From sequence record PQ511146.1: a DNA stretch of 64,000 nucleotides. One strand, 5' to 3'. A model generated the notes under the pieces. The model ran no database searches and was not told where the DNA came from. It worked only from the letters and a program-made list of their open reading frames with translations. Made by a program: the position numbers and the translations under genes. Shown here piece by piece: positions 38,009-57,723 of the stretch. The stretch is from Escherichia phage NHEP1. The stretch's first letter is position 1. Every line of letters starts with the position of its first letter.

Positions 38009-40081
38009 TTATGAGAAGTCTGGCGGAACAACATCTTCTACATACCCTTTCAGAGCAACCTGTCCCATATGCAGAACAGTAGAATCTCTGGCGGTAACAG
38101 TGATGCTGTCAGACATTACTTGCGGGTATGCCCACACATACTGTTTTACCTCAGGGTATCTATACTCTATGGTTGCCATGTTTCCGCAGATACATCTCCA
38201 TAAAAATTCTTGGTAATTCCTGGTTGGGTCGTAGCCATATACCGGAGCAAGCTCTTTGCTAGGAACGAACCCTGCAAGGTATTGTATTTCAGACGGTTGC
38301 CAACCTAACTTAACGATAGGTATGTTTACAGACTCTTTTGCCTTTTCAATACCGCCCTGCATCACCCAATCGTAGCACTCGGTGCAGAAGAAATCAAGAG
38401 CGCCTGCTTCCTTTTTATATTGGTCGGCAAGGTTCAGTTTTTGCGTAAGCTCGGTTTCCATAATGGTCGGGAAAAACAGCAAAGCTGTCATCTGAGCCGA
38501 TGCAGCATGTGCTTTTATTGCCTTTGAAATAGCTGCAATACGAGCTCCAAGCTTACCACGACAAAATGCTACATACTTGTCATAAACACCGCCAGTTTTA
38601 GGATCGTCAATAGTCCCAATGTCTAGTGCATATTCACCAGTCTCATCATAAAACGCCTGCTTTGTAGGGTAGTCATAAATACAAGGCTTACGAGTATCGG
38701 TATTGAACCACCACCACGGTTCACCAATCTGCATAATCACTGGCAGGTTGTTTCTCATAGCGGCTGATGCAAAATTCTTAAATACTGCAGTAAGGAAATT
38801 CATACCCTCTTCAATGGTTGGAGACAGGAGGTAACTACAAGGCGTATAGCCTGTTTTAGCATAGTTATCGTTCCAGTCTCTCTGGGTCCATTCCAACGGA
38901 CAGGCATCGCTATAAAGCTCAAAGCTTACAGACTGCATAACGTCGAAGTCATGTCGTTTGGCATTGTACATAAAATCATCATGCCATTTATAAGCTGCAG
39001 CGTTTAGAGCTCCTGTTTTGTTTATAGACCATTGGGTTCCTGACCATGTGTAGTCATAATAATGGCTCATACCAACATAATGGTTTATGGTTCCTGTATA
39101 GCCCAGACGCTTGATATTACTCAACACCCTTAAAGGGGATACGTTCCACATATCGTCATATGCTGTGCAGATCCCAACATCGTGTTCTTTCACCTGAATA
39201 TTGTTAAGTTGCATCATTTTCCAGCCTGTGTCCGGCTGAAGAAGATCTAGACGCAACTCACACTCTACATTTTCCGTTCTCGGGTCTGTGCTATTACCTA
39301 CCCAATCTTTAGGCATAAGTGGTATTAGAATCCTTCTCACCTGCCGGGGATCAACACCCATCATGTTGTTGTTCTGGTCCATCCCGACGCAGTCCTCGAA
39401 ATCAATATGAATTTCTGCAACATTCTTATCCTCTGAGATGCTGACAGCATATTGAGCTAAAGGAACATAGATGATTGTACCATCAACAAGGTCTACAGTC
39501 ATAATCATCTTTTCAGGGGTGGAGAAGTTGCTGGCATTGGTTATTGACATTCTGAACCAAAGCTTGGTGTTTCTCATCTCGTAGTGATCATCAAATCCAA
39601 TGCCGAAATGGTCATACTTGTCAACTGTTTCCCAAATGCACCCAGCCATGCCCCCATATGTTCTTGACACTAAACGATTAATACAGCAGTTATTATCCGC
39701 AACAATACAGGTGCTTTCAGTCTGCTGTGTGGTTGTAACCCAGTATCTTGGGTGAAACATTCTCTCCTCAACGGTATCCCAAGATATTCTGTCAAGATTT
39801 TCATCTGAAACTATTGTACATTTCGCTCTTTGTGTTCCAATCATAACCCCTTGGGAGTTTGATGAAAACTCCATAAAGAAGCTCCTTGGCAACCTGTTTG
39901 GCAATTTGTCAACAATTTCTACAGGGATCTCGATACTGGTTGCCCCAACCGGGATAGTTACATCGCCCTCAACATGATCATAATCCCTACCCGGAACTGC
40001 AGTATCCTGAACTGTGCGGTAATGAAACCGTGCAGCCATTGTAGAGTAATCACGGTAAGGTTTAAAAACAGCTGTTGCCAT
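38009..40081 (-). CDS. baseplate/fibre-associated structural protein with N-terminal Calx-beta-like segment
   Basis: 690 aa; DYDHVEGDVTIPVGATSIEIPVEIVDK; positioned after baseplate J/I-like genes. Confidence 0.45.
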   Translation of the reverse strand: MATAVFKPYRDYSTMAARFHYRTVQDTAVPGRDYDHVEGDVTIPVGATSIEIPVEIVDKLPNRLPRSFFMEFSSNSQGVMIGTQRAKCTIVSDENLDRISWDTVEERMFHPRYWVTTTQQTESTCIVADNNCCINRLVSRTYGGMAGCIWETVDKYDHFGIGFDDHYEMRNTKLWFRMSITNASNFSTPEKMIMTVDLVDGTIIYVPLAQYAVSISEDKNVAEIHIDFEDCVGMDQNNNMMGVDPRQVRRILIPLMPKDWVGNSTDPRTENVECELRLDLLQPDTGWKMMQLNNIQVKEHDVGICTAYDDMWNVSPLRVLSNIKRLGYTGTINHYVGMSHYYDYTWSGTQWSINKTGALNAAAYKWHDDFMYNAKRHDFDVMQSVSFELYSDACPLEWTQRDWNDNYAKTGYTPCSYLLSPTIEEGMNFLTAVFKNFASAAMRNNLPVIMQIGEPWWWFNTDTRKPCIYDYPTKQAFYDETGEYALDIGTIDDPKTGGVYDKYVAFCRGKLGARIAAISKAIKAHAASAQMTALLFFPTIMETELTQKLNLADQYKKEAGALDFFCTECYDWVMQGGIEKAKESVNIPIVKLGWQPSEIQYLAGFVPSKELAPVYGYDPTRNYQEFLWRCICGNMATIEYRYPEVKQYVWAYPQVMSDSITVTARDSTVLHMGQVALKGYVEDVVPPDFS

Positions 40082-40778: not shown

Positions 40779-42269
40779 TTAAATAGTTTGTTGGAAAGTT
40801 ATATTACTTTCGTCGAGGTCAAACACCTCGGTCATGTTTGCAACAATATCGTTTGTAGTGTAAGCTTCGTCAGAGGCTCCTACAGGTTTAACTTGAATTA
40901 CCAATCTGTTAAATCTGCCTATCGACACAGCAGCGGATGCAGCACCTACCAATTGGATATTGTACAACGTATCGGCGACATCCAAGCCGTTAACAACCTG
41001 TAAAAGAGCCTCTACAATGGCATCTTTTTCGGTTGTGGAAAGCGCAGCACCTGAGTAGGTAATTCTTACATCTAGGCGGTAGGTATTTGCCTTGGAGTAA
41101 TAAATCCTTTCAGTCTGACCGTCTGATGTGGTAATATCGTAGAAGATATTCCCATAAGTTCTGTTTGTGCAAGCTATGGTTTGATACAGTGCCTGACAGA
41201 TATCCTCTGTTGCACCACCAAACACCACCACTTGAAACTTATAAGGTGGTATACCTTTCGCATCCGTTTTATCGGTGTTGTTGGAGAACACTCTTACTTT
41301 CTCAACACCTTTCACCTCGCTTACAGCGCTAAGGATTGCAGGACGGGTAGCTTTAGATGTCAGCTGTTTAGTGCTGGAAGCTCTTAAGCGATACTCAGAG
41401 TCTTTCTCAACATCCCTACCCTCATTGAATCTTTCTCGGTTGGTAAGCTTGATAAATCCACTGGGAGTAGGTGACATTGTTGTCACGGTTTCTGCCTCTC
41501 TTGACAGCTCACCAGCCTCGTTAGCGATAACATCTAGGGTGATAGTTCTTTCCCCTACAATCGGGGATACTCTGAAATCTACCCTGCTATTAAGTCCAAC
41601 TTGATCAAGATTCGAATTGTACCCTATCCACAACGTCCCTGTCAACATATCTATCTGAATTAGATCATCATTCAGCAGGGTTGTATTATCGACAATGAAT
41701 TGCTTAATCTCGCCGTAAAAGCTTGGCAAATCAGAAGAGTCCAGAGCCTTATCTGTTAAAACCAGACTTTTTGTTTTGATACTTCCGTCTGTCTGGTTGG
41801 TAATTTGAAAGTTGTATTTCCCAATTCTTAGGTCTGGAGCGTTTATTCTGTGAGCAATAAGATTTCCCGCCACCTGCACATCGTTGCTAAGAACAAAGTT
41901 GCCACTGTCCAGCGTATAAGTTTTGGAATCATAAATCATATTGTACGGCACAGTTGTGTTGATTGTCAACTGGCAGGTACCTGATGATTTAGAACGGCCT
42001 CTTCGGTAAATACCCTGTCTTCCAAGAAGCTCATCCAGGTAAATACCTTCTGCCCCATATAGCGTCTGTGATGCGTATACAGATGCTGCCATAAGAATAA
42101 GTTGATATTCTCGCTCGTTGAAAATAGTGGTCAGCTTATCTGCAACTGAGTTACTTTGTACGTTGAAGTTTTCGCCAAAAGCACGGATCAGGCTTTGCTT
42201 AGTTTCAACGATTAGGTCATTTAGGGTTGGTATAACGAAACCAGCCTCTGTCAATCCATACTTAGCCAC
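40779..42269 (-). CDS. baseplate wedge protein, Baseplate_J (gp6/gp47/XkdT-like)
   Basis: 496 aa; N-terminal GLTEAGFVIPTLNDLIVETKQSLIRAFG, central YRLRASSTKQLTSKATRPAILSAVSEVKGVEKVRVF and C-terminal region fit Baseplate_J pattern; GTG start after GGAGGAG SD. Confidence 0.65.
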   Translation of the reverse strand: MAKYGLTEAGFVIPTLNDLIVETKQSLIRAFGENFNVQSNSVADKLTTIFNEREYQLILMAASVYASQTLYGAEGIYLDELLGRQGIYRRGRSKSSGTCQLTINTTVPYNMIYDSKTYTLDSGNFVLSNDVQVAGNLIAHRINAPDLRIGKYNFQITNQTDGSIKTKSLVLTDKALDSSDLPSFYGEIKQFIVDNTTLLNDDLIQIDMLTGTLWIGYNSNLDQVGLNSRVDFRVSPIVGERTITLDVIANEAGELSREAETVTTMSPTPSGFIKLTNRERFNEGRDVEKDSEYRLRASSTKQLTSKATRPAILSAVSEVKGVEKVRVFSNNTDKTDAKGIPPYKFQVVVFGGATEDICQALYQTIACTNRTYGNIFYDITTSDGQTERIYYSKANTYRLDVRITYSGAALSTTEKDAIVEALLQVVNGLDVADTLYNIQLVGAASAAVSIGRFNRLVIQVKPVGASDEAYTTNDIVANMTEVFDLDESNITFQQTI

Positions 42270-42374: not shown

Positions 42375-45300
42375 TTAGTCGTGAGACTCGTTCCAAGGTC
42401 CCTGGAAGCTTGAGTTAGAACGACTAACGATCACAGTGGGACAGGAGATTGTGACACCTGTCACGCTAGACGTTGACCACGGTGTGTAAATCTCGATAAC
42501 AATGTCTATAGTTTGTTCACCCAGACCTGTTATCCCTACCGCACACATGCCGTTGTTGTCGTTAAAATACTTCTTGCCAGCAAGGATCTGATGACCAGCT
42601 ATCCATGCATTCAGCTGGGAGCTGGCAAGAGTACCATTCAGTTTAAAGAAGAATGTTACGTTCTTACCCTGACCTGAAACGTTATCTACGTATCTCCACC
42701 TCCAACGGCAAACCCTTTGCCGGGAGTTGTATACTGGAGCACAATCTCCGTAAGTCCTGTGTGCAACAATCGCACCTTCGAACTGGTTAGCACGGATAAC
42801 GGAAGCTTCTACACGTCCACGGAATGTACCTCCTGTTGCATCTATGGTTCCTCTAAAGCTACCGTTGTTGGCATAAACATCCCCACGGAAGGTGCCACTG
42901 GTAGCGTTAACTGCCCCTGTGAAGTTACCTGCACTAGCGTTGATGTTACCTTTCACCCACACATCCATAAACTGGGCGTGCCCGTTCTTGTTAATATACC
43001 AACCGTATTTGTGGTACCCGTTGCCATCGTAGTTGTTTGACGAAATTTCTTGCGCGATCTTGGCAGAAGAGATCGTGCCGTTCTCTATAAAAGCGTCTTT
43101 CAAGAACGCTTGGTTGTTCTTGATTGCGAAAGCAAGGGTTGCTGTTCCATTGCCTGGGTTGTATACCGCAAAGTTGTTTGCGCTAACCATGAAATATGAC
43201 TGAACTTGGCCTCCAGAGCCTTCCATGCCTAACTGGATACCTGCCACATACTTATTCCCTGCGGAGTCTACCTGTATTTTTGTGCCCCATTGAGCATTTA
43301 CTTTGCCCTCTAAGTCGGTCACAGCCTTAGATGTTGTAGCCACTGCAGCTCTGAGTTCGGTCACATCTCCAACATCATCAATAATCTCCTGCTTAGCAAC
43401 AGCAAGTTCTTGACGAATAGCTGACGCTGTGCCATTAATAAGGTCAACAGTAGACTTATTAGTTTCAGAAATATTCGCAGACAATTCTTTCTTAGTCTGA
43501 GTCAGCTTATTATCCAACCCGTTAATGTTATTGGTGTTGGTTGTAATCTGCCCTTTAGCAGTGGTTAACTGCTCAGTCAAAGCTGCCGTTTTCTGATTCA
43601 ATAGGTCAGTTGTGGCCTTGTTGGTGGTAGAAATCAACGTATTAAGATCAGACTTGGCGGTGTTTATCTTACCATCAAGCGTGGTGTAGTTTTTGGACAC
43701 TGTGGCGTTGGTCTGGCTAATCTTCTGGTCAAGAGTCTCAGAAGTTCTGTTCAGCAAGTCCACAGTGGCCTGGTTAGTGCTCAGAATGCTCGCATCCAAC
43801 TCAGATCTTTGAGTATTCAACTTGCCCTCTAGGCTCTTATCACCAGCCAGATAGCCTTTTTCAACATCTCCGATCTGCTCAGTCAACTCTCCCTGTGCAG
43901 CAACCAGTTTTTCATCCAACGCCTCTGTTTTCTTATTAAGAAGATCAGTGGTGGATTTGTTGGTTGACTCAATCAAGGATGATAGTTTAGCACTCTCATT
44001 TTGCAGGTTGTTGGTCAACTCACCTTTCGTTGCTGTCAGCTTGTTATCTAAAGCCTCAGTTTTCCGATTAAGGAGATCTGTAGTCGTTTTATTGGTTGAA
44101 ACAATTAGAGAGTTCAGCTCAGAGCTTTCCTGTGCCAAAGCATCTTCCAATTCACCCCTTGTTGAAACAATCTTCTCGTCCAAAGCTTCAGTTTTCTGAT
44201 TTAACAGATCGGTTGTAGCTTTGTTAGTGGTCTGTATTAGAGAAGTCAGCTTACCACTTTCTTTAGAAAGATCATCTGCAAACTTGTTCTGAGTGGCTAC
44301 CAGTTTCTGGTCTAGAGTGGTAAGCGTTCCATTAACGTCCTGGAAGTTGTCGTGGGTTTCTTGGATGAATATTCCAACCCTATTCCCCAACTGAGCATAC
44401 AGCTTGTCTACTCTAGAGAACTCACCTTCCATGTGGTCAAAAGCCTCGTCAACTCTACCATCCATGTACCTGTTAAGTTCTGTGACACGATTTTCAACCT
44501 CTTCAATAGAGGAATCTAAAGTGCTCATCAACTCTTTATAAGTTTCTGTCTTTTTAAATTCAGCATCTATCTGAGGCATCAAATCTTCAATAGAGGTGTA
44601 GCAGCGTGCAGCGCATTCTATAAACTGAGAACTACCAAAAGCGTTTGTGGTTCGAATATACCAATAATAGATCTTATCGTTCTGCAGACCTTCAGATGTC
44701 CAAGTTGAACCAACACCCATACGAGTGGCTTTTGAAGTAACGGTTGCATCACTTGTGTCTGGCAACCTTGTCATACCAGATGTCCAAAAGTCATACTGGG
44801 TGCTTACACTTGCTAAGTCCCTGCTGTGCGGAATCAAGGTGATAGCAAAGTATCCCTGCTTAACTTCTACAGAAACCGGAGCTTCAGGTGCCTGAATGTT
44901 AAACTCGCAGTACGCTTCTGGAGATACACCACCTTTATAAGATGTTGCAACCACGGTTGCTGTGTATGACCCTTTGGTCAATCCTTCTACACGGACAAAC
45001 TGCTCTACTGTTTGTGCTGTCCAAATAATTTCTCCGTTCTTTCTTACCTGCACAATATTTTGAGCATAAGTTCCAACGTTGTCCCAAGCCAAAACACCAT
45101 GAGTTACTTCCCCAGCTTGAAGAACAGAGTATCTGAAGTTTTGCGGTTGAGCTACGCCGGACGGGGATATCGGAATATCCACATCGCCAGAATCCGGAAG
45201 TTGCCCTGTGGCATCATTCCACTCTTTAGCATCTTGACGGAGTTTTACCTTGACACCGCCCTTTTTGGTGAACTCCCACTCAAGAACCCTCATTTCTTGG

Positions 45301-46520
45301 CCCACTATACCAATACTTGGAAGGTCCATCGTAACGTAACGCCCAGGCTTAAATTTAAAACCCCGCATATTGCAGGTTACTTCAATAATCCTACCAGCTC
45401 TGGCACGTCTTAAGAAGATTGCAGAAACACGCTGAGCTTGATAAGGACTGGTAACAAAGCGATAATCTATATCGATTATCTTTCTTTCTCCATCCTTCTC
45501 TATCCACTCTGGGACAAACACTGATGGAAAATCTGTTTCAGAATATCCTTTAGCCGGACTAGTGAATCTGCCAGTTATTGTGTTGGATCTTTTGTCGAAG
45601 GAGGCTTCAGGATAGATCTTAACCTCACCGCAAACACAGTCCTCACTCAGTGTCATTGTTGCCGGGCCATAGTATGCACCTACCAGCAGACCATATTTGC
45701 CAGCTACATAGCTAAGGTCTGCACCACAAGCTTTCAGCATCTCTGCCATAATGCTTGCTGGTGCTTCATCCATGTCGAACTCGCCATTAATGGTGTAACG
45801 GCGCTCACTGGTTCCGTCCGCGTTTTTTACAGCCTCGTCGCATATGTTGGCAGCTTCCTTGAAGGACTCCCAGTTGATGGTTTCGTCAGGACATTTAAGG
45901 TACGTTCTTAGATAGTCCAGAATCACCAAGGCAGCGTTGTTGGTATACACCTCTTTACTGATACGAGGATCATAACATTTTTTACCAACCTTGACGAGTG
46001 TAACGTTTGGCAACCCAAAAGGAAACTTGTTAGGGTCAAACTTAAAGCTGGCACGTAGCCAACTGATCCCTCTACCTATCATGTCTGGTGACCACGAAGG
46101 GCAGTGTGTGCCCATGAAAGGATCAGAGGTTTTCCTGTCGTTATGCAACTCCCACGATACCAAATCCCCATACGAGGAAATAGGATTACCGTCGATAAGT
46201 ATATCTTCTATACCTTCCAAGGGATGATTGGCAAGAACAATAGCACAATGAAGGGTTCTGTCCCTGTCCTGCTCTAAAAACGCAAGCAATCCAGATGTGC
46301 GTGTCTTCCCATATACTACAGAGCAAGGTGCAGCAGAAGATCTGAGAAGTTTTTGTCTATCTTGTTGACTTCTGTAAGATTTGTTGCCTTCGAAAATCTT
46401 ATCAAGGGTTCTGGTGGTAACAGTGTTCAGGCTGTCAGCCAGAGCTGCCTTGGATGCGTTCCAGTCATAGCTCGAAGATCTTGCAGAAGCAACGATGTTA
46501 TCAATCATTGCAATTGGCAT
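42375..46520 (-). CDS. lambda gpJ-like host specificity / central tail fibre protein with expanded coiled-coil repeat insert
   Basis: 1381 aa; FN3-like segment (APEAPVSVEVKQGYFAITLIPHS ... YYWYIRTTNAFGSSQFIE) and YVAGIQLGMEG... segment resemble recalled lambda J; six 44-57 aa repeats (L[TNS]SLI.[ST]TNK.TTDLLN) between them. Confidence 0.55.
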   Translation of the reverse strand: MPIAMIDNIVASARSSSYDWNASKAALADSLNTVTTRTLDKIFEGNKSYRSQQDRQKLLRSSAAPCSVVYGKTRTSGLLAFLEQDRDRTLHCAIVLANHPLEGIEDILIDGNPISSYGDLVSWELHNDRKTSDPFMGTHCPSWSPDMIGRGISWLRASFKFDPNKFPFGLPNVTLVKVGKKCYDPRISKEVYTNNAALVILDYLRTYLKCPDETINWESFKEAANICDEAVKNADGTSERRYTINGEFDMDEAPASIMAEMLKACGADLSYVAGKYGLLVGAYYGPATMTLSEDCVCGEVKIYPEASFDKRSNTITGRFTSPAKGYSETDFPSVFVPEWIEKDGERKIIDIDYRFVTSPYQAQRVSAIFLRRARAGRIIEVTCNMRGFKFKPGRYVTMDLPSIGIVGQEMRVLEWEFTKKGGVKVKLRQDAKEWNDATGQLPDSGDVDIPISPSGVAQPQNFRYSVLQAGEVTHGVLAWDNVGTYAQNIVQVRKNGEIIWTAQTVEQFVRVEGLTKGSYTATVVATSYKGGVSPEAYCEFNIQAPEAPVSVEVKQGYFAITLIPHSRDLASVSTQYDFWTSGMTRLPDTSDATVTSKATRMGVGSTWTSEGLQNDKIYYWYIRTTNAFGSSQFIECAARCYTSIEDLMPQIDAEFKKTETYKELMSTLDSSIEEVENRVTELNRYMDGRVDEAFDHMEGEFSRVDKLYAQLGNRVGIFIQETHDNFQDVNGTLTTLDQKLVATQNKFADDLSKESGKLTSLIQTTNKATTDLLNQKTEALDEKIVSTRGELEDALAQESSELNSLIVSTNKTTTDLLNRKTEALDNKLTATKGELTNNLQNESAKLSSLIESTNKSTTDLLNKKTEALDEKLVAAQGELTEQIGDVEKGYLAGDKSLEGKLNTQRSELDASILSTNQATVDLLNRTSETLDQKISQTNATVSKNYTTLDGKINTAKSDLNTLISTTNKATTDLLNQKTAALTEQLTTAKGQITTNTNNINGLDNKLTQTKKELSANISETNKSTVDLINGTASAIRQELAVAKQEIIDDVGDVTELRAAVATTSKAVTDLEGKVNAQWGTKIQVDSAGNKYVAGIQLGMEGSGGQVQSYFMVSANNFAVYNPGNGTATLAFAIKNNQAFLKDAFIENGTISSAKIAQEISSNNYDGNGYHKYGWYINKNGHAQFMDVWVKGNINASAGNFTGAVNATSGTFRGDVYANNGSFRGTIDATGGTFRGRVEASVIRANQFEGAIVAHRTYGDCAPVYNSRQRVCRWRWRYVDNVSGQGKNVTFFFKLNGTLASSQLNAWIAGHQILAGKKYFNDNNGMCAVGITGLGEQTIDIVIEIYTPWSTSSVTGVTISCPTVIVSRSNSSFQGPWNESHD
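43390..44290 (-). repeat. diverged tandem repeat array (about 132-bp units) encoding coiled-coil repeats inside the J-like gene
   Basis: Recurring DNA blocks with ...gttggt...gaaa... cores near 43440, 43600, 43940, 44070, 44200; protein repeats LTSLIQTTNKATTDLLNQ / LNSLIVSTNKTTTDLLNR / LSSLIESTNKSTTDLLNK etc. Confidence 0.6.
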
Positions 46521-46957
46521 TAATACCTCCAGACATCAACAACGATAGAATCTTTCATGTCGAACATAAAGATCCCTTTATCACCTTTCGCCCAAATCTG
46601 GTTGTTCCAGAACACACCAGCGGTGAGCCCGTTCAGACCTTCGAAAATAACAATATCACCACGCTGAACCTGTTTAGGAGTATCCAGTCGAGTCAAAAAG
46701 AGATCAAAAATAGTAGGCAGATGTGTGGTTTTGAAACGAAGCATGCACCATCTCTTGCTTTCCAACTCTGTTTTATACGTTCCTTCAAAGTTAGAAAGAA
46801 AATCTGTTCCGTATTGGGCATCAACACACTTAGCCGCAAAAGTGCAGCAATCGTGGAATCCCCATTCAAACGGGATGGTGGCTTCTTCGTCAAACACTTT
46901 CCACAATCTTTCTTGCCAGTCCACTAAACGAGGGTGTGTGCTCATTAAACCTCCCAA
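46520..46957 (-). CDS. tail-associated NlpC/P60-like peptidase (tentative)
   Basis: 145 aa; FEWGFHDCCTFAAKCVDAQYG with candidate catalytic Cys; immediately upstream of J-like gene. Confidence 0.35.
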   Translation of the reverse strand: MGGLMSTHPRLVDWQERLWKVFDEEATIPFEWGFHDCCTFAAKCVDAQYGTDFLSNFEGTYKTELESKRWCMLRFKTTHLPTIFDLFLTRLDTPKQVQRGDIVIFEGLNGLTAGVFWNNQIWAKGDKGIFMFDMKDSIVVDVWRY

Positions 46958-47511
46958 ATGATCGGGCGGCTTGCCACCTGATCCACATATTTAAAAAATC
47001 TGTCATTATCGTTTCTTGAGCTATGGCTCTCCTCTGTGTACCGATAAGGAAAACCTCTTAACCAGCTGTTGAAGATGGAAGATATGGATATGGACAAAGC
47101 ACTATTCTCCCCTGTCTGAATAGCCATGTCTGTTATAAGGCCGTCAAACAAGCCATTGGTTGTAACAGGTAAACCATTCTCCATAGCTGTGATATACAAC
47201 GTGGCACGACAACCCGAATACTCCGTCTTCAGCAGATCACCTACATACTTGGGATCAAACCCGTTCAATGTTGCTACCACAGATCCGAAGTTGGTGGCAT
47301 CTTTCTCAGACACAGCAGTCAATGTTGCTGATCCACCTATCCCTATAAAATGTTGCCCCTCAATCACCACAACACCAGTTCCTGAGCACACCCTGACAGT
47401 CCCTGTTGGTAGCTCTAGCTTTGCAGCAATTAAGATCTCAACACTATCAAGCTCCAGCTTTTCAAGAAATAAATTATCTAATGGCGCTCTAATCATCTTA
47501 GAAATCCTCAA
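46945..47511 (-). CDS. tail tip assembly protein (hypothetical)
   Basis: 188 aa; overlapping stop/start with neighbours. Confidence 0.4.
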   Translation of the reverse strand: MRISKMIRAPLDNLFLEKLELDSVEILIAAKLELPTGTVRVCSGTGVVVIEGQHFIGIGGSATLTAVSEKDATNFGSVVATLNGFDPKYVGDLLKTEYSGCRATLYITAMENGLPVTTNGLFDGLITDMAIQTGENSALSISISSIFNSWLRGFPYRYTEESHSSRNDNDRFFKYVDQVASRPIIWEV

Positions 47512-48088
47512 AGAAGTTGATAACTATATTATCACCTTTTTGCATAGCATCGACTTTTTGCTTAATTTTATAAATATCTCTGATATGAAACCTACCCTTT
47601 GGGGATTGAGTTATTATCTTCATAGTGTCCCCTGCGGCAATAGGTTTTCTAAGTCTTGGAGATATGCTTATAACAGCAGACCCAACACCATCGCTGCGCA
47701 CTGGAGCTGTTACCACTTTCAATTCATCGTTAACAGATATTTTATCCCCAGCTCTGGCTATGTCTCTGTTTGGCTCCCATCCGACCGTCTTCAAAAAATC
47801 GTCGTTACCAGTAGGCCCAAGGGCGATTGGCTCATTAGCTGTTACTGAGTGACCGTACGTTTTAATAAGAAAAATGTTCCCATCTTTATACACCTGATCA
47901 ACAAAGCTCTTAAGCTCTAGCAGTTGTGACTCGCTGATATTGGAAACCGTCAAAGTGCCTTTCCAGTTAGGTGTGGCATAGGTCACTTTTTGCGTTTTAC
48001 CTGTAAACGGACTTTTAAACGTAACAATATCTGCCAGCAGCTCCAATCTGATGTCTGGAAGGTATCTAGGCCTTTCCCATAAAAACAT
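47498..48088 (-). CDS. tail tip protein (hypothetical, distal-tail-like position)
   Basis: 196 aa; first gene after terminator 48148-48180. Confidence 0.4.
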   Translation of the reverse strand: MFLWERPRYLPDIRLELLADIVTFKSPFTGKTQKVTYATPNWKGTLTVSNISESQLLELKSFVDQVYKDGNIFLIKTYGHSVTANEPIALGPTGNDDFLKTVGWEPNRDIARAGDKISVNDELKVVTAPVRSDGVGSAVISISPRLRKPIAAGDTMKIITQSPKGRFHIRDIYKIKQKVDAMQKGDNIVINFFEDF

Positions 48089-56047: not shown

Positions 56048-56725
56048 TTAGTGCGGTCCACTTGTCTCGCCATCAGGGCAAGAGTGGGTATGACCTTTAT
56101 ATTCTGCATAGAATGAGTCCAAATCCACACCAGCAGCCGTTATAATTCTACCAGACGGGTCTACTGTTGCACCATTCATTCTAATATTCCCATCCACAGC
56201 AGCTCGTAAGTTGGCAGCTCCGTTAGTGAAAGAAAACTCCCCACTACTGTCGCACCGTAATGTCCCGCCAGGTGTTTGAAGCTCAAAATCACCAGAAGGT
56301 GTCAGCTTAAAATAAACCCTATCATTCCATAACTCCACATTATCAGGATCGATCTGCAAAGCGTTCGAGTCTGAATGAACAGAGGTTATTGCCCACCCTG
56401 GAAACAGACCGTGAGTTTGTTGATCGTCGTTATTGTTTTCATTTCTCTCTGAAAACTGCAACCCTACAACATCGCCAGCCTTAATAGGGAGTGTTAACCT
56501 TGCCTTCCCACTGTTTGCAGACATCACCTGGATCGGAACGTCATAAATAAGAGGGTATCTCTCAACATCCCCGTCATCAAACGTGGTTTCAGCTATTGGC
56601 TGTACTGCTGCGGAGGGGATACTGTAATCTACACTGACAACTCTGGCCCTGATACTGGTGTGGTAGTCCCTCATTATTTTTTCTATAAAGGATCTTACAG
56701 CAGCATCTTTCCTATTTATTGCCAT
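56048..56725 (-). CDS. baseplate central spike, gpV/gp5-like
   Basis: 225 aa; C-terminal KGHTHSCPDGETSGPH with HxH metal-binding-type apex motif; adjacent to gp25-like gene. Confidence 0.55.
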   Translation of the reverse strand: MAINRKDAAVRSFIEKIMRDYHTSIRARVVSVDYSIPSAAVQPIAETTFDDGDVERYPLIYDVPIQVMSANSGKARLTLPIKAGDVVGLQFSERNENNNDDQQTHGLFPGWAITSVHSDSNALQIDPDNVELWNDRVYFKLTPSGDFELQTPGGTLRCDSSGEFSFTNGAANLRAAVDGNIRMNGATVDPSGRIITAAGVDLDSFYAEYKGHTHSCPDGETSGPH

Positions 56726-57723
56726 TATACCTCCTCAGTTTTGTCAACAACTCCACCCACTGTTTCCCCAAGGCCAAGCTCTGTAGTGTAATCACCACCT
56801 TCTATGGTGCCCTTATGATGGACTGTGATCACCTTATAGAAGCCTGTGTATTGCCTGCTTTTAAGATAAATGGTGGACTCTGGGAGGATCGCCCCGTTAA
56901 GACATGTGGTTACAGTAAGACCAACATCCTCTCTCGGGTTTTTCTTTTTCTTACTTGTGCCACCTTTCGCAGCAGCTTTAGCTTTTCGTTTTTTAGCAGG
57001 TTCTGGGTTTTTAGGTGTGGGTGATCCGTGCATCCCAGACTCTGCACTTATTTCAAATACAGAGTCCTTGAACCTTTTTCCAACCTTGGTCCAATATAGA
57101 GCACCGTCCTGAACGCTGAATGTTGAGTTTGTCAGCCTTGCAAACCTGCGGAGGTTCTCTGCAGTGTTCCCAGAGAAAGCCATAGAGTATTGTAAAGTCT
57201 GGTTTCCAAAACCAACAACCCTACCTTTTGGCAAGTTCATATCCTTCAGCAGGTCATTAAGCACAGAGTTCAGAGGTGTGCCCTTCTGATAAGACCTTGT
57301 GCTTTGGCACTTAATGATGTTCTCAGTGCCATCCCCAAAGATGAACTTAGTTTTTCTGGTCGGACCTTCCCATCTGTCCTCAACAAACTCTACAGTTCCG
57401 GAGAATATCAACTGGTTCTCATTATCATAGCCAGCCTCAAACATAACTGCAAGAGCATCAGCTTGATGCATATCCAGATAGTTAACTGTATCGTCAGACA
57501 GGTTGTAAACTGTCACATAGCCTTTGTTTGGCTCTTTGGTATTGTCCTTTTGTATGTCAAACTCGATATTGGCAGCACCAGTGTCCGAGCTAATCTCATA
57601 AACTCCGGAATCACTCTCTCCTTTCTTTTCAACAGATTTTGGGATATTGGTTTTTGATTTACCGCCATGCTCTACAGGACGACCAAATAATAATCGCCAT
57701 GTTCTACGTCTGTACTCTGCCAT
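56725..57723 (-). CDS. tail/baseplate protein (hub-like position), hypothetical
   Basis: 332 aa; Lys-rich segment PEPAKKRKAKAAAKGGTSKKKKNPR; between tape measure and spike. Confidence 0.35.
   Translation of the reverse strand: MAEYRRRTWRLLFGRPVEHGGKSKTNIPKSVEKKGESDSGVYEISSDTGAANIEFDIQKDNTKEPNKGYVTVYNLSDDTVNYLDMHQADALAVMFEAGYDNENQLIFSGTVEFVEDRWEGPTRKTKFIFGDGTENIIKCQSTRSYQKGTPLNSVLNDLLKDMNLPKGRVVGFGNQTLQYSMAFSGNTAENLRRFARLTNSTFSVQDGALYWTKVGKRFKDSVFEISAESGMHGSPTPKNPEPAKKRKAKAAAKGGTSKKKKNPREDVGLTVTTCLNGAILPESTIYLKSRQYTGFYKVITVHHKGTIEGGDYTTELGLGETVGGVVDKTEEV

Follow-up and report, generated by a model that had tools for sequence, protein, structure and literature searches.

The open reading frame (ORF) at 42375..46520, on the minus strand of a 64,000-nucleotide (nt) stretch of Escherichia phage NHEP1 DNA (record PQ511146.1, hereafter the window), was found to be a real gene of 4146 nt that encodes a lambda-J-like fibre protein of 1381 amino acids (aa), and the long helical stalk of this protein consists in large part of six diverged units repeated in tandem. 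The array is probably the shaft of a trimeric fibre, in which role it would set the length between the anchoring domains and the receptor-binding domains. The source phage is a Vequintavirus, that is, an rV5-like myophage of E. coli, and its J-like gene is 97.6% identical at the nt level to that of vB_EcoM-ECP32 and 95% identical to that of ECML-10. The orthologous protein of rV5, gp37 (1279 aa), was identified as a virion protein by mass spectrometry (PMC3606486).

Repeat array

The six units occupy aa 755-1051 (43368..44258, minus strand) and were anchored on the motif [ST]TNKxT[TV]DL[LI]N. Units 1 (aa 755-798, 44127..44258) and 2 (aa 799-842, 43995..44126) are each 44 aa long, unit 3 (aa 843-904, 43809..43994) has 62 aa and includes a GYLAG helix break that was located with an AlphaFold2 (AF2) model, and units 4 (aa 905-955, 43656..43808), 5 (aa 956-1009, 43494..43655) and 6 (aa 1010-1051, 43368..43493) have 51, 54 and 42 aa, respectively; unit 6 is kept in all alleles. 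Pairwise Smith-Waterman scores among the six were 61-141, and composition-matched shuffled segments (2000 trials) gave a mean of 22.4, a standard deviation of 4.8 and a maximum of 57. A degenerate seventh unit with marginal scores of 35-45 (aa 1052-1095, 43236..43367) forms the transition to the tail-tip domain and is related by homology to the coiled-coil segment that comes last in the F2-pyocin fibre. When a profile of the unit was run against the six-frame translation of the window, a partial upstream copy was recovered at about aa 730-759 and nothing beyond this copy and the array, and no match to the repeat family outside Vequintavirus was obtained in 50,697 phage records.

At the DNA level the array appeared as a four-copy family of 92 nt with 62-73% identity and spacings of 132, 132, and 339. 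An initial annotation of the window, made from the sequence alone, had described six diverged repeats of 44-57 aa mirrored by tandem DNA repeats of about 132 bp at 43390..44290. The number of repeats was borne out, with the degenerate seventh copy as an addition; the proposed unit lengths were close to the 42-62 aa measured here, and the proposed interval agreed with the measured one to within about 30 nt. The 132-bp period was valid for units 1-3 only because of the longer spacing that follows. Tandem Repeats Finder (minimum score 30) reported nothing in the array because the units lie below its identity limit of about 70%, and its blank result was therefore dropped as an argument against the repeats. 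A proposal that unit and indel lengths are sums of 7 and 11, which would preserve the register, was also rejected, as most integers in the range can be decomposed in this way. An antisense ORF of 83 aa (43948..44199, plus strand) lies wholly within the array; it had no support as a gene, and the repetition of codons in the array is its most likely origin.

Conservation within each unit is much stronger in the motif TNKxTTDLLN than in the remainder, and this was the sole support found for the suggestion that the stalk is a branching trunk, on which the polar motif or the non-helical insertions of units 3-5 would dock other fibre proteins, so that copy number would set the count of side fibres carried. 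Such an arrangement has a counterpart in the F7 pyocin, in which a short gap in the coiled coil of the central fibre is the binding site of three side-fibre trimers (bioRxiv 10.64898/2026.01.28.702463), and about nine fibre proteins are encoded for the multi-fibre apparatus of Vequintaviruses (PMC8594841, PMC12143355). No candidate docking partner was identified, however, no acidic patch resembling the F7 site was present, relatives with 2-6 units share one set of neighbouring fibre genes, and the conservation of the motif is explained equally well by core packing or by recombination-driven homogenization. A trunk of this kind is accordingly regarded as improbable.

Periodicity and predicted structure of the stalk

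The helical stalk extends over aa 646-1074 (43299..44585, minus strand), a segment of about 429 residues with a single proline. Its hydrophobicity spectrum peaked at 3.64 residues, with a power of 254 versus a 99th-percentile value of 102 in shuffles, and for the 44-aa units (units 1-3) the peak was at 3.68, with a power of 130 versus a 99th-percentile null value of 82. A canonical heptad was not detected, the power at 3.50 being 0.3 in units 1-3 and 4.3 in the whole stalk. Hydrophobic residues instead occupy the a, d, and e positions of every one of the four 11-residue blocks that make up a unit, which indicates that the periodicity of the stalk is that of a hendecad (11/3); since 44 is 4 × 11, each 44-aa unit therefore consists of four hendecads. 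The coiled coil proposed by the initial annotation was thus supported by the scarcity of proline, the amphipathic periodicity, a low-confidence AF2 helix and Pfam matches to families of amphipathic helices, and was refined to a hendecad-based one.

The AF2 monomer model of aa 640-1381 was built from a shallow alignment and had a predicted local distance difference test score (pLDDT) of 46, and only its secondary structure was used. It placed a helix at aa 648-1073 with breaks at aa 807-812, at aa 891-895 (the GYLAG sequence in the insertion of unit 3) and at aa 1050-1053. We infer a trimeric state because the flanking domains are homologous to those of lambda gpJ and of the F-pyocin central fibres, which are trimeric. 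The Vequintavirinae fibre has been modelled as an elongated protein that contains a large coiled-coil domain and has an N-terminus of the kind typical for central tail fibres, the published models of this fibre class being elongated AF2-multimer predictions, and coiled coils 'of varying lengths' have been noted in J-type fibres (PMC12143355).

Pfam searches of the stalk returned a match to Apolipoprotein that did not reach the gathering cut-off (E=2.9e-7) and one to Spectrin_7, both of them families of amphipathic helices. Such matches would be expected if the helices folded back into an antiparallel bundle of the spectrin or apolipoprotein kind, in which the repeats would thicken or stiffen a short rod, and the three predicted helix breaks, as well as the 11- and 22-residue periodicities typical of apolipoproteins, would also fit a bundle. 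The matches are, however, weak and below threshold, and they are explained by the 11-residue amphipathic periodicity that the stalk has in common with apolipoproteins, which are built of 11- and 22-residue repeats. Moreover, in the lambda and pyocin homologues the trimer is parallel, and the published models of the fibre class are elongated, so that a fold-back bundle is considered very unlikely.

Copy-number alleles

The proteins of the phage in the window and of four relatives were aligned. Over the first 660 aa and the last 320 aa the aligned phages were almost identical, and the alleles differed only in the stalk, with six units in the window phage (1381 aa), four in ECP26, which is of the rV5 type (1279 aa), three in FFH2 (1199 aa), and two in O157 typing phage 14 (1174 aa). 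Of the 116 records with a match to the gene, 60 were sampled at even spacing; the gene spanned 4146 nt in 6 of these, 3840 nt in 30, 3600 nt in 21, and 3525 nt in 1. The long 1381-aa allele is thus a minority form, present in about 10% of records, but a well-represented one, with 129 sequences in its 90% cluster. In the BASEL paper, three large fibre genes were noted to differ by allele among these phages (PMC8594841).

Comparison of the window gene with that of ECP26 showed nt identities of 97-100% over aa 1-660 and 1050-1381 and of 54-82% in the stalk. The proportion of synonymous differences (pS) was 0.78, that is, saturated, in the stalk versus 0.05-0.12 in the flanks, and the ratio of nonsynonymous to synonymous divergence (dN/dS) was low. 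Positive selection was rejected as the source of the stalk divergence on these grounds. Saturation of synonymous sites between near-identical flanks points, therefore, to old diverged cassettes that were moved by recombination; on this sequence evidence the stalk is a set of old allelic cassettes swapped among close genomes, not a fast-evolving segment. Paralogous units within the gene were as diverged as the alleles are from one another, and the duplications are therefore old and the array is not a slippage-prone variable number tandem repeat (VNTR). A hypermutable repeat or contingency locus was likewise not indicated by the 62-73% nt identity of the units, the negative Tandem Repeats Finder result and the synonymous saturation.

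MAFFT gap placement had made the first unit of ECP26 appear to be a chimera of window units 1 and 3. This was discarded, as the DNA of that unit was 73.5% identical to unit 3 throughout; a 'recent two-unit deletion' was therefore dropped in favour of diverged alleles. Typing phage 14 presented a different case. Its stalk is of the ECP26 type, with synonymous divergence equal to that of the flanks, and lacks exactly 105 aa in register, and the crossover lies inside a conserved core, ACCAAC.AAGC.AC.GTGGA.CTT, that is common to two units. Judged from these alignments, the deletion is recent and has the signature of unequal homologous recombination between repeats.

The suggestion of the initial annotation that the array could set fibre length was supported by the series of 6, 4, 3, and 2 units between near-identical flanks, from which a difference in physical length would follow. 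Its further suggestion, that the array may be prone to expansion and contraction, was upheld in part: one in-register deletion was found, but most of the variation reflects old alleles that were recombined and not frequent recent slippage. The comparison of copy number across relatives that it had proposed revealed variation in length, and the internal repetition was also significant. The observation was thus confirmed and its interpretation supported, with two refinements, namely that the coil is hendecad-based and that the variation consists mostly of old recombining alleles with an occasional unequal crossover.

Three groups of database records were of additional note. In Escherichia phage V18 (KY683736, 2504..5244), aa 1-645 and 1090-1381 are kept in different frames, the whole stalk appears to be deleted and the gene is split. 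In Pr121LW (MH752840, 2989..6420), the annotated orthologue (1139 aa in the reading frame that was taken) is cut short close to its C-terminus, and the tblastn match continues for another 300 nt or so, broken into three pieces, a pattern suggestive of a frameshift or a sequencing error. All matches to the J-like gene in the phage collection were to records of Vequintavirus or to records labelled 'Campylobacter phage'; the latter comprise 18 GenBank MG0656xx entries (host Campylobacter jejuni) that carry the gene at 91-94% nt identity and are probably mislabelled or contaminant rV5-like phages.

The stalk as a probable length-setting shaft

A mechanism in which the stalk is a length-setting shaft would operate as follows. 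The core of the shaft would follow the 11-residue a/d/e pattern, and the six diverged copies of a 44-residue unit, some of them with short insertions, would make up most of its length. The conserved domains of the distal end (tail tip and C-terminal receptor-binding) would in this way be kept a fixed distance away from the anchoring domains, likewise conserved, at the N-terminus. With a rise of about 0.148 nm per residue, a 44-aa unit would correspond to some 6.5 nm of shaft, and the lengths predicted for the four alleles are about 64, 49, 37, and 33 nm. Copy number would shift by unequal homologous recombination at the conserved DNA core of the units, and also by exchange of whole diverged stalk cassettes between co-infecting relatives. 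If the shaft is extended, any selective reason for a change in its length may lie in reach through O-antigen or capsule.

For rV5, 'thin tail fibers of 70 nm' were reported (PMC3606486). The shaft of rV5 together with its beta domains would measure about 65-70 nm, a value near that of the reported fibres and suggestive only. Trimeric helical shafts built of repeated segments are also found in the segmented coiled coil of T4 fibritin and in the stalks of the YadA and BadA autotransporters, in which the number of segments sets the reach of the terminal binding domain and non-heptad periodicities are common. These proteins belong to other families and contexts, and their likeness to the fibre in the window is one of general description, with no sequence relationship expected.

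Several observations weigh against a length-setting role. The AF2 monomer model has the low pLDDT given above, and the three predicted helix breaks could be hinges or points of fold-back, in which case length might not be linear with residue number. The fibre was not placed in the cryo-electron microscopy maps of Bas49 and Bas54 (PMC12143355). The strong conservation of the polar TNKxTTDLLN motif is unexplained by a pure spacer role. Finally, the V18 record, if genuine, may mean that the phage can dispense with the distal half of its fibre, at any rate under laboratory conditions; alternatively, the record may be faulty through assembly errors.

Domain organization and relation to F-type pyocin fibres

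PHROG phrog_31, 'central tail fiber J', matched the protein with E=9e-161 over aa 143-1237. The N-terminal hub-like region (aa 48-490, 45051..46379, minus strand, as are all features of the gene) was 46-58% identical to the J proteins of Queuovirinae, and residues 526-752 of the T5 hub protein pb3 matched aa 243-472 (E=9.5e-5), so that the N-terminal hub domains are homologous to those of the J or central fibre family (gpJ and pb3). Two Ig/FN3-like domains follow at aa 493-652 (44565..45044), with Pfam matches to Ig_J (aa 493-545, E=4.7e-5) and Ig_J_second (aa 547-652, E=3.4e-30). The Phage_Tail_Tip domain (PF09327) was found C-terminal to the stalk at aa 1059-1199 (42924..43346, E=6.9e-39) and includes the sequence YVAGIQLGMEG. 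The expected order of Ig_J/FN3 and then Phage_Tail_Tip was thus present, with Pfam scores of 104.6 bits (cut-off 27) and 133.2 bits (cut-off 22). The distal C-terminal domain (aa 1200-1381, 42378..42923), presumably the receptor-binding end, is near-invariant among Vequintavirus alleles and returned no match in Pfam or PDB searches. The region aa 1059-1381 (42378..43346) aligned over its full length, down to the terminal ...WxESHD, at 45% identity with P0134, a full-length lambda-type J protein of 1484 aa with its own helical linker of about 400 aa.

The best PDB sequence match was lambda gpJ (E=8.6e-28), in which residues 666-846 align with aa 497-680 and residues 846-990 with aa 1061-1217. 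About 380 aa of the J-like protein are without a lambda counterpart because the lambda alignment resumes directly at aa 1061; in the J proteins of Skure and FritzHoffmann only about 76-111 aa occupy this place. The Pfam, PHROG and PDB matches concur with the initial annotation in its description of the protein as J-like, and the lambda alignment and the short linkers of Skure and FritzHoffmann bear out its description of the array as expanded. The protein shares with lambda gpJ and T5 pb3 a hub-like N-terminus, FN3/Ig_J domains, a short helical segment, a Phage_Tail_Tip beta domain, and a distal receptor-binding domain, and its gene is preceded by three tail-tip genes as in siphoviruses. It differs from them in the additional helical residues and in that the phage encoding it is a myovirus with a hub of its own. 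Roughly the first 300-400 residues of lambda gpJ have no equivalent in it, and the phrog_31 match begins at profile position 466.

The stalk is a long coiled coil immediately N-terminal of a pyocin-homologous beta-prism seed, as in the F7 and F2 pyocin central fibres. The Phage_Tail_Tip domain aligns with the F2-pyocin fibre as well as with lambda gpJ 846-990, aa 975-1180 matched residues 987-1184 of F2 (25vf) with E=1e-18, and the final segments, TTSKAVTDLEG and TTSQAVTSLDG, are homologous. In the F7 pyocin, the coiled coil beside the homologous tail-tip domain refolds to a beta-prism on cell contact, and a switch was predicted in 21 of 24 siphophage central fibres by the same study (bioRxiv 10.64898/2026.01.28.702463). 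The stalk might by analogy be a metastable spring, whose extra repeats would give a longer prism or more stored energy and not simply reach. The strand motif SxSxxMxxLxS alternates in orientation at aa 1023, 1031, 1051, and 1062, and the stretch aa 1023-1072 is present in all alleles, as a spring would have it. The pattern was, however, not enriched over the whole stalk (7 matches versus 4.9±2.1 in shuffles) and was essentially missing from units 2, 4, and 5, and its 'small' positions are T or N, in contrast to the reported Ala-rich pattern. The stalk is about 2.6 times as long as the 163-aa fold-switching coiled coil of the pyocins, is composed of tandem units and is T/N/K-rich, not Ala-rich. 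At most its last 55 or so aa, the segment in which the switch motif occurs, look switch-like, and it is not obvious why a myovirus, which has a hub and a contractile sheath of its own, would need a power stroke. That the stalk as a whole acts as a spring is therefore judged unlikely.

Siphovirus-type tail-tip module

The J-like gene is the last of a four-gene module (42375..48088, minus strand). The three upstream genes (46520..48088, minus strand) encode a Dit-like protein of 196 aa (phrog_1302), a tail protein of 188 aa (phrog_2048) and a DUF6950 protein of 145 aa (phrog_2134/PF22262). All four have homologues of the same size and in the same order downstream of the tape measure gene in Queuovirinae siphoviruses (Skure, FritzHoffmann), with identities of 31-34%, 40%, 44%, and, for J, 46-58%. 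The source phage also has a myovirus hub (56725..57723), wedge (40779..42269), and sheath-related genes, and its tape measure is about 12 kb from the module, with hub and fibre genes between. When the N-terminal 480 aa were searched with tblastn against the phage collection, matches of at least 95% were obtained in Vequintavirus, followed by 58% in siphoviruses, and no other myovirus genus was found. No J-like protein is mentioned in the phi92 and phiTE structure papers, a silence that fits this result.

The closest relatives of the protein outside Vequintavirus are the J proteins of Queuovirinae (Seuratvirus Skure, Nonagvirus 9g, FritzHoffmann), with 46-58% identity over aa 48-686 and 50-54% over the tail-tip domain, in addition to the same module. 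Unlike the protein in the window, those of Skure and FritzHoffmann have the short helical linker mentioned above and no TNKxTTDLLN array, and the distal C-terminal domain in this group is a different one. In the siphovirus homologues the first 45 aa form a strongly hydrophobic segment rich in Ala, Gly and Ile, with a grand average of hydropathy (GRAVY) of 1.4-1.66. The corresponding aa 1-45 of the window protein (46386..46520) keep 'MPxA.I' and are otherwise hydrophilic (GRAVY 0.01), a change that suggests, as far as can be read from the sequences, that a membrane or tube-plug function was lost on co-option.

By gene content and homology the module looks like a captured siphovirus tail tip that was converted to a fibre, and a complete siphovirus-type tail-tip module inside a myovirus is a more unusual feature than the stalk. 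A broader scenario can be formulated, in which an ancestor of the Vequintavirus myophages captured the module as a fibre and the stalk became a scaled-up spring or a multi-site trunk; if so, unit number would tune stored energy or valency. This combination of events is considered unlikely.

The product of 38009..40081 (minus strand), downstream of the wedge genes, is a protein of 690 aa that matched the TIM barrel of a 'non-contractile tail sheath protein' in Pfam (E=8e-80), as well as a sheath N-terminal domain and Calx-beta, an odd annotation for a phage with a contractile tail.

Linkers in the J-like family

Linkers were surveyed in 65 representatives of 50%-identity clusters in which the FN3 and tail-tip domains occur in the expected order. 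The FN3-to-tail-tip linker ranged from 44 to about 2480 aa (2483 aa), the lambda type having 47 aa, and the 429-aa linker of the window protein was in the upper third. Internal similarity exceeded that of shuffles in 12 of 16 linkers of 286-616 aa. The array in the window was among the most regular, with scores of at least 50 in 13 of 36 segment pairs, a share surpassed only by P0190 (18 of 45), and its periodicity of 3.64 exceeds the values of 3.53-3.58 found in most long linkers. The longest linkers, of up to about 2480 aa, belong to giant J-like proteins of 2300-4800 aa (P0123, P0124, P0129, P0132, P0239, and others), in which coiled-coil segments with repeats of the ALxxRVTxAEGxITSQGxxIT type alternate with repeated globular modules. 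Long, internally repetitive stalks are thus common in J-like proteins, and the array described here is real but fairly ordinary.

Implications for rV5-like phages

If the stalk sets reach, the four alleles would constitute a ready series of fibres, with predicted shafts of about 33 to about 64 nm on near-identical proteins, and this series could be used to test fibre length against adsorption through O-antigen, capsule, and NGR glycan layers. The unit boundaries would also be safe cut points for the engineering of fibre length in rV5-like phages, which are used in the biocontrol of E. coli O157.

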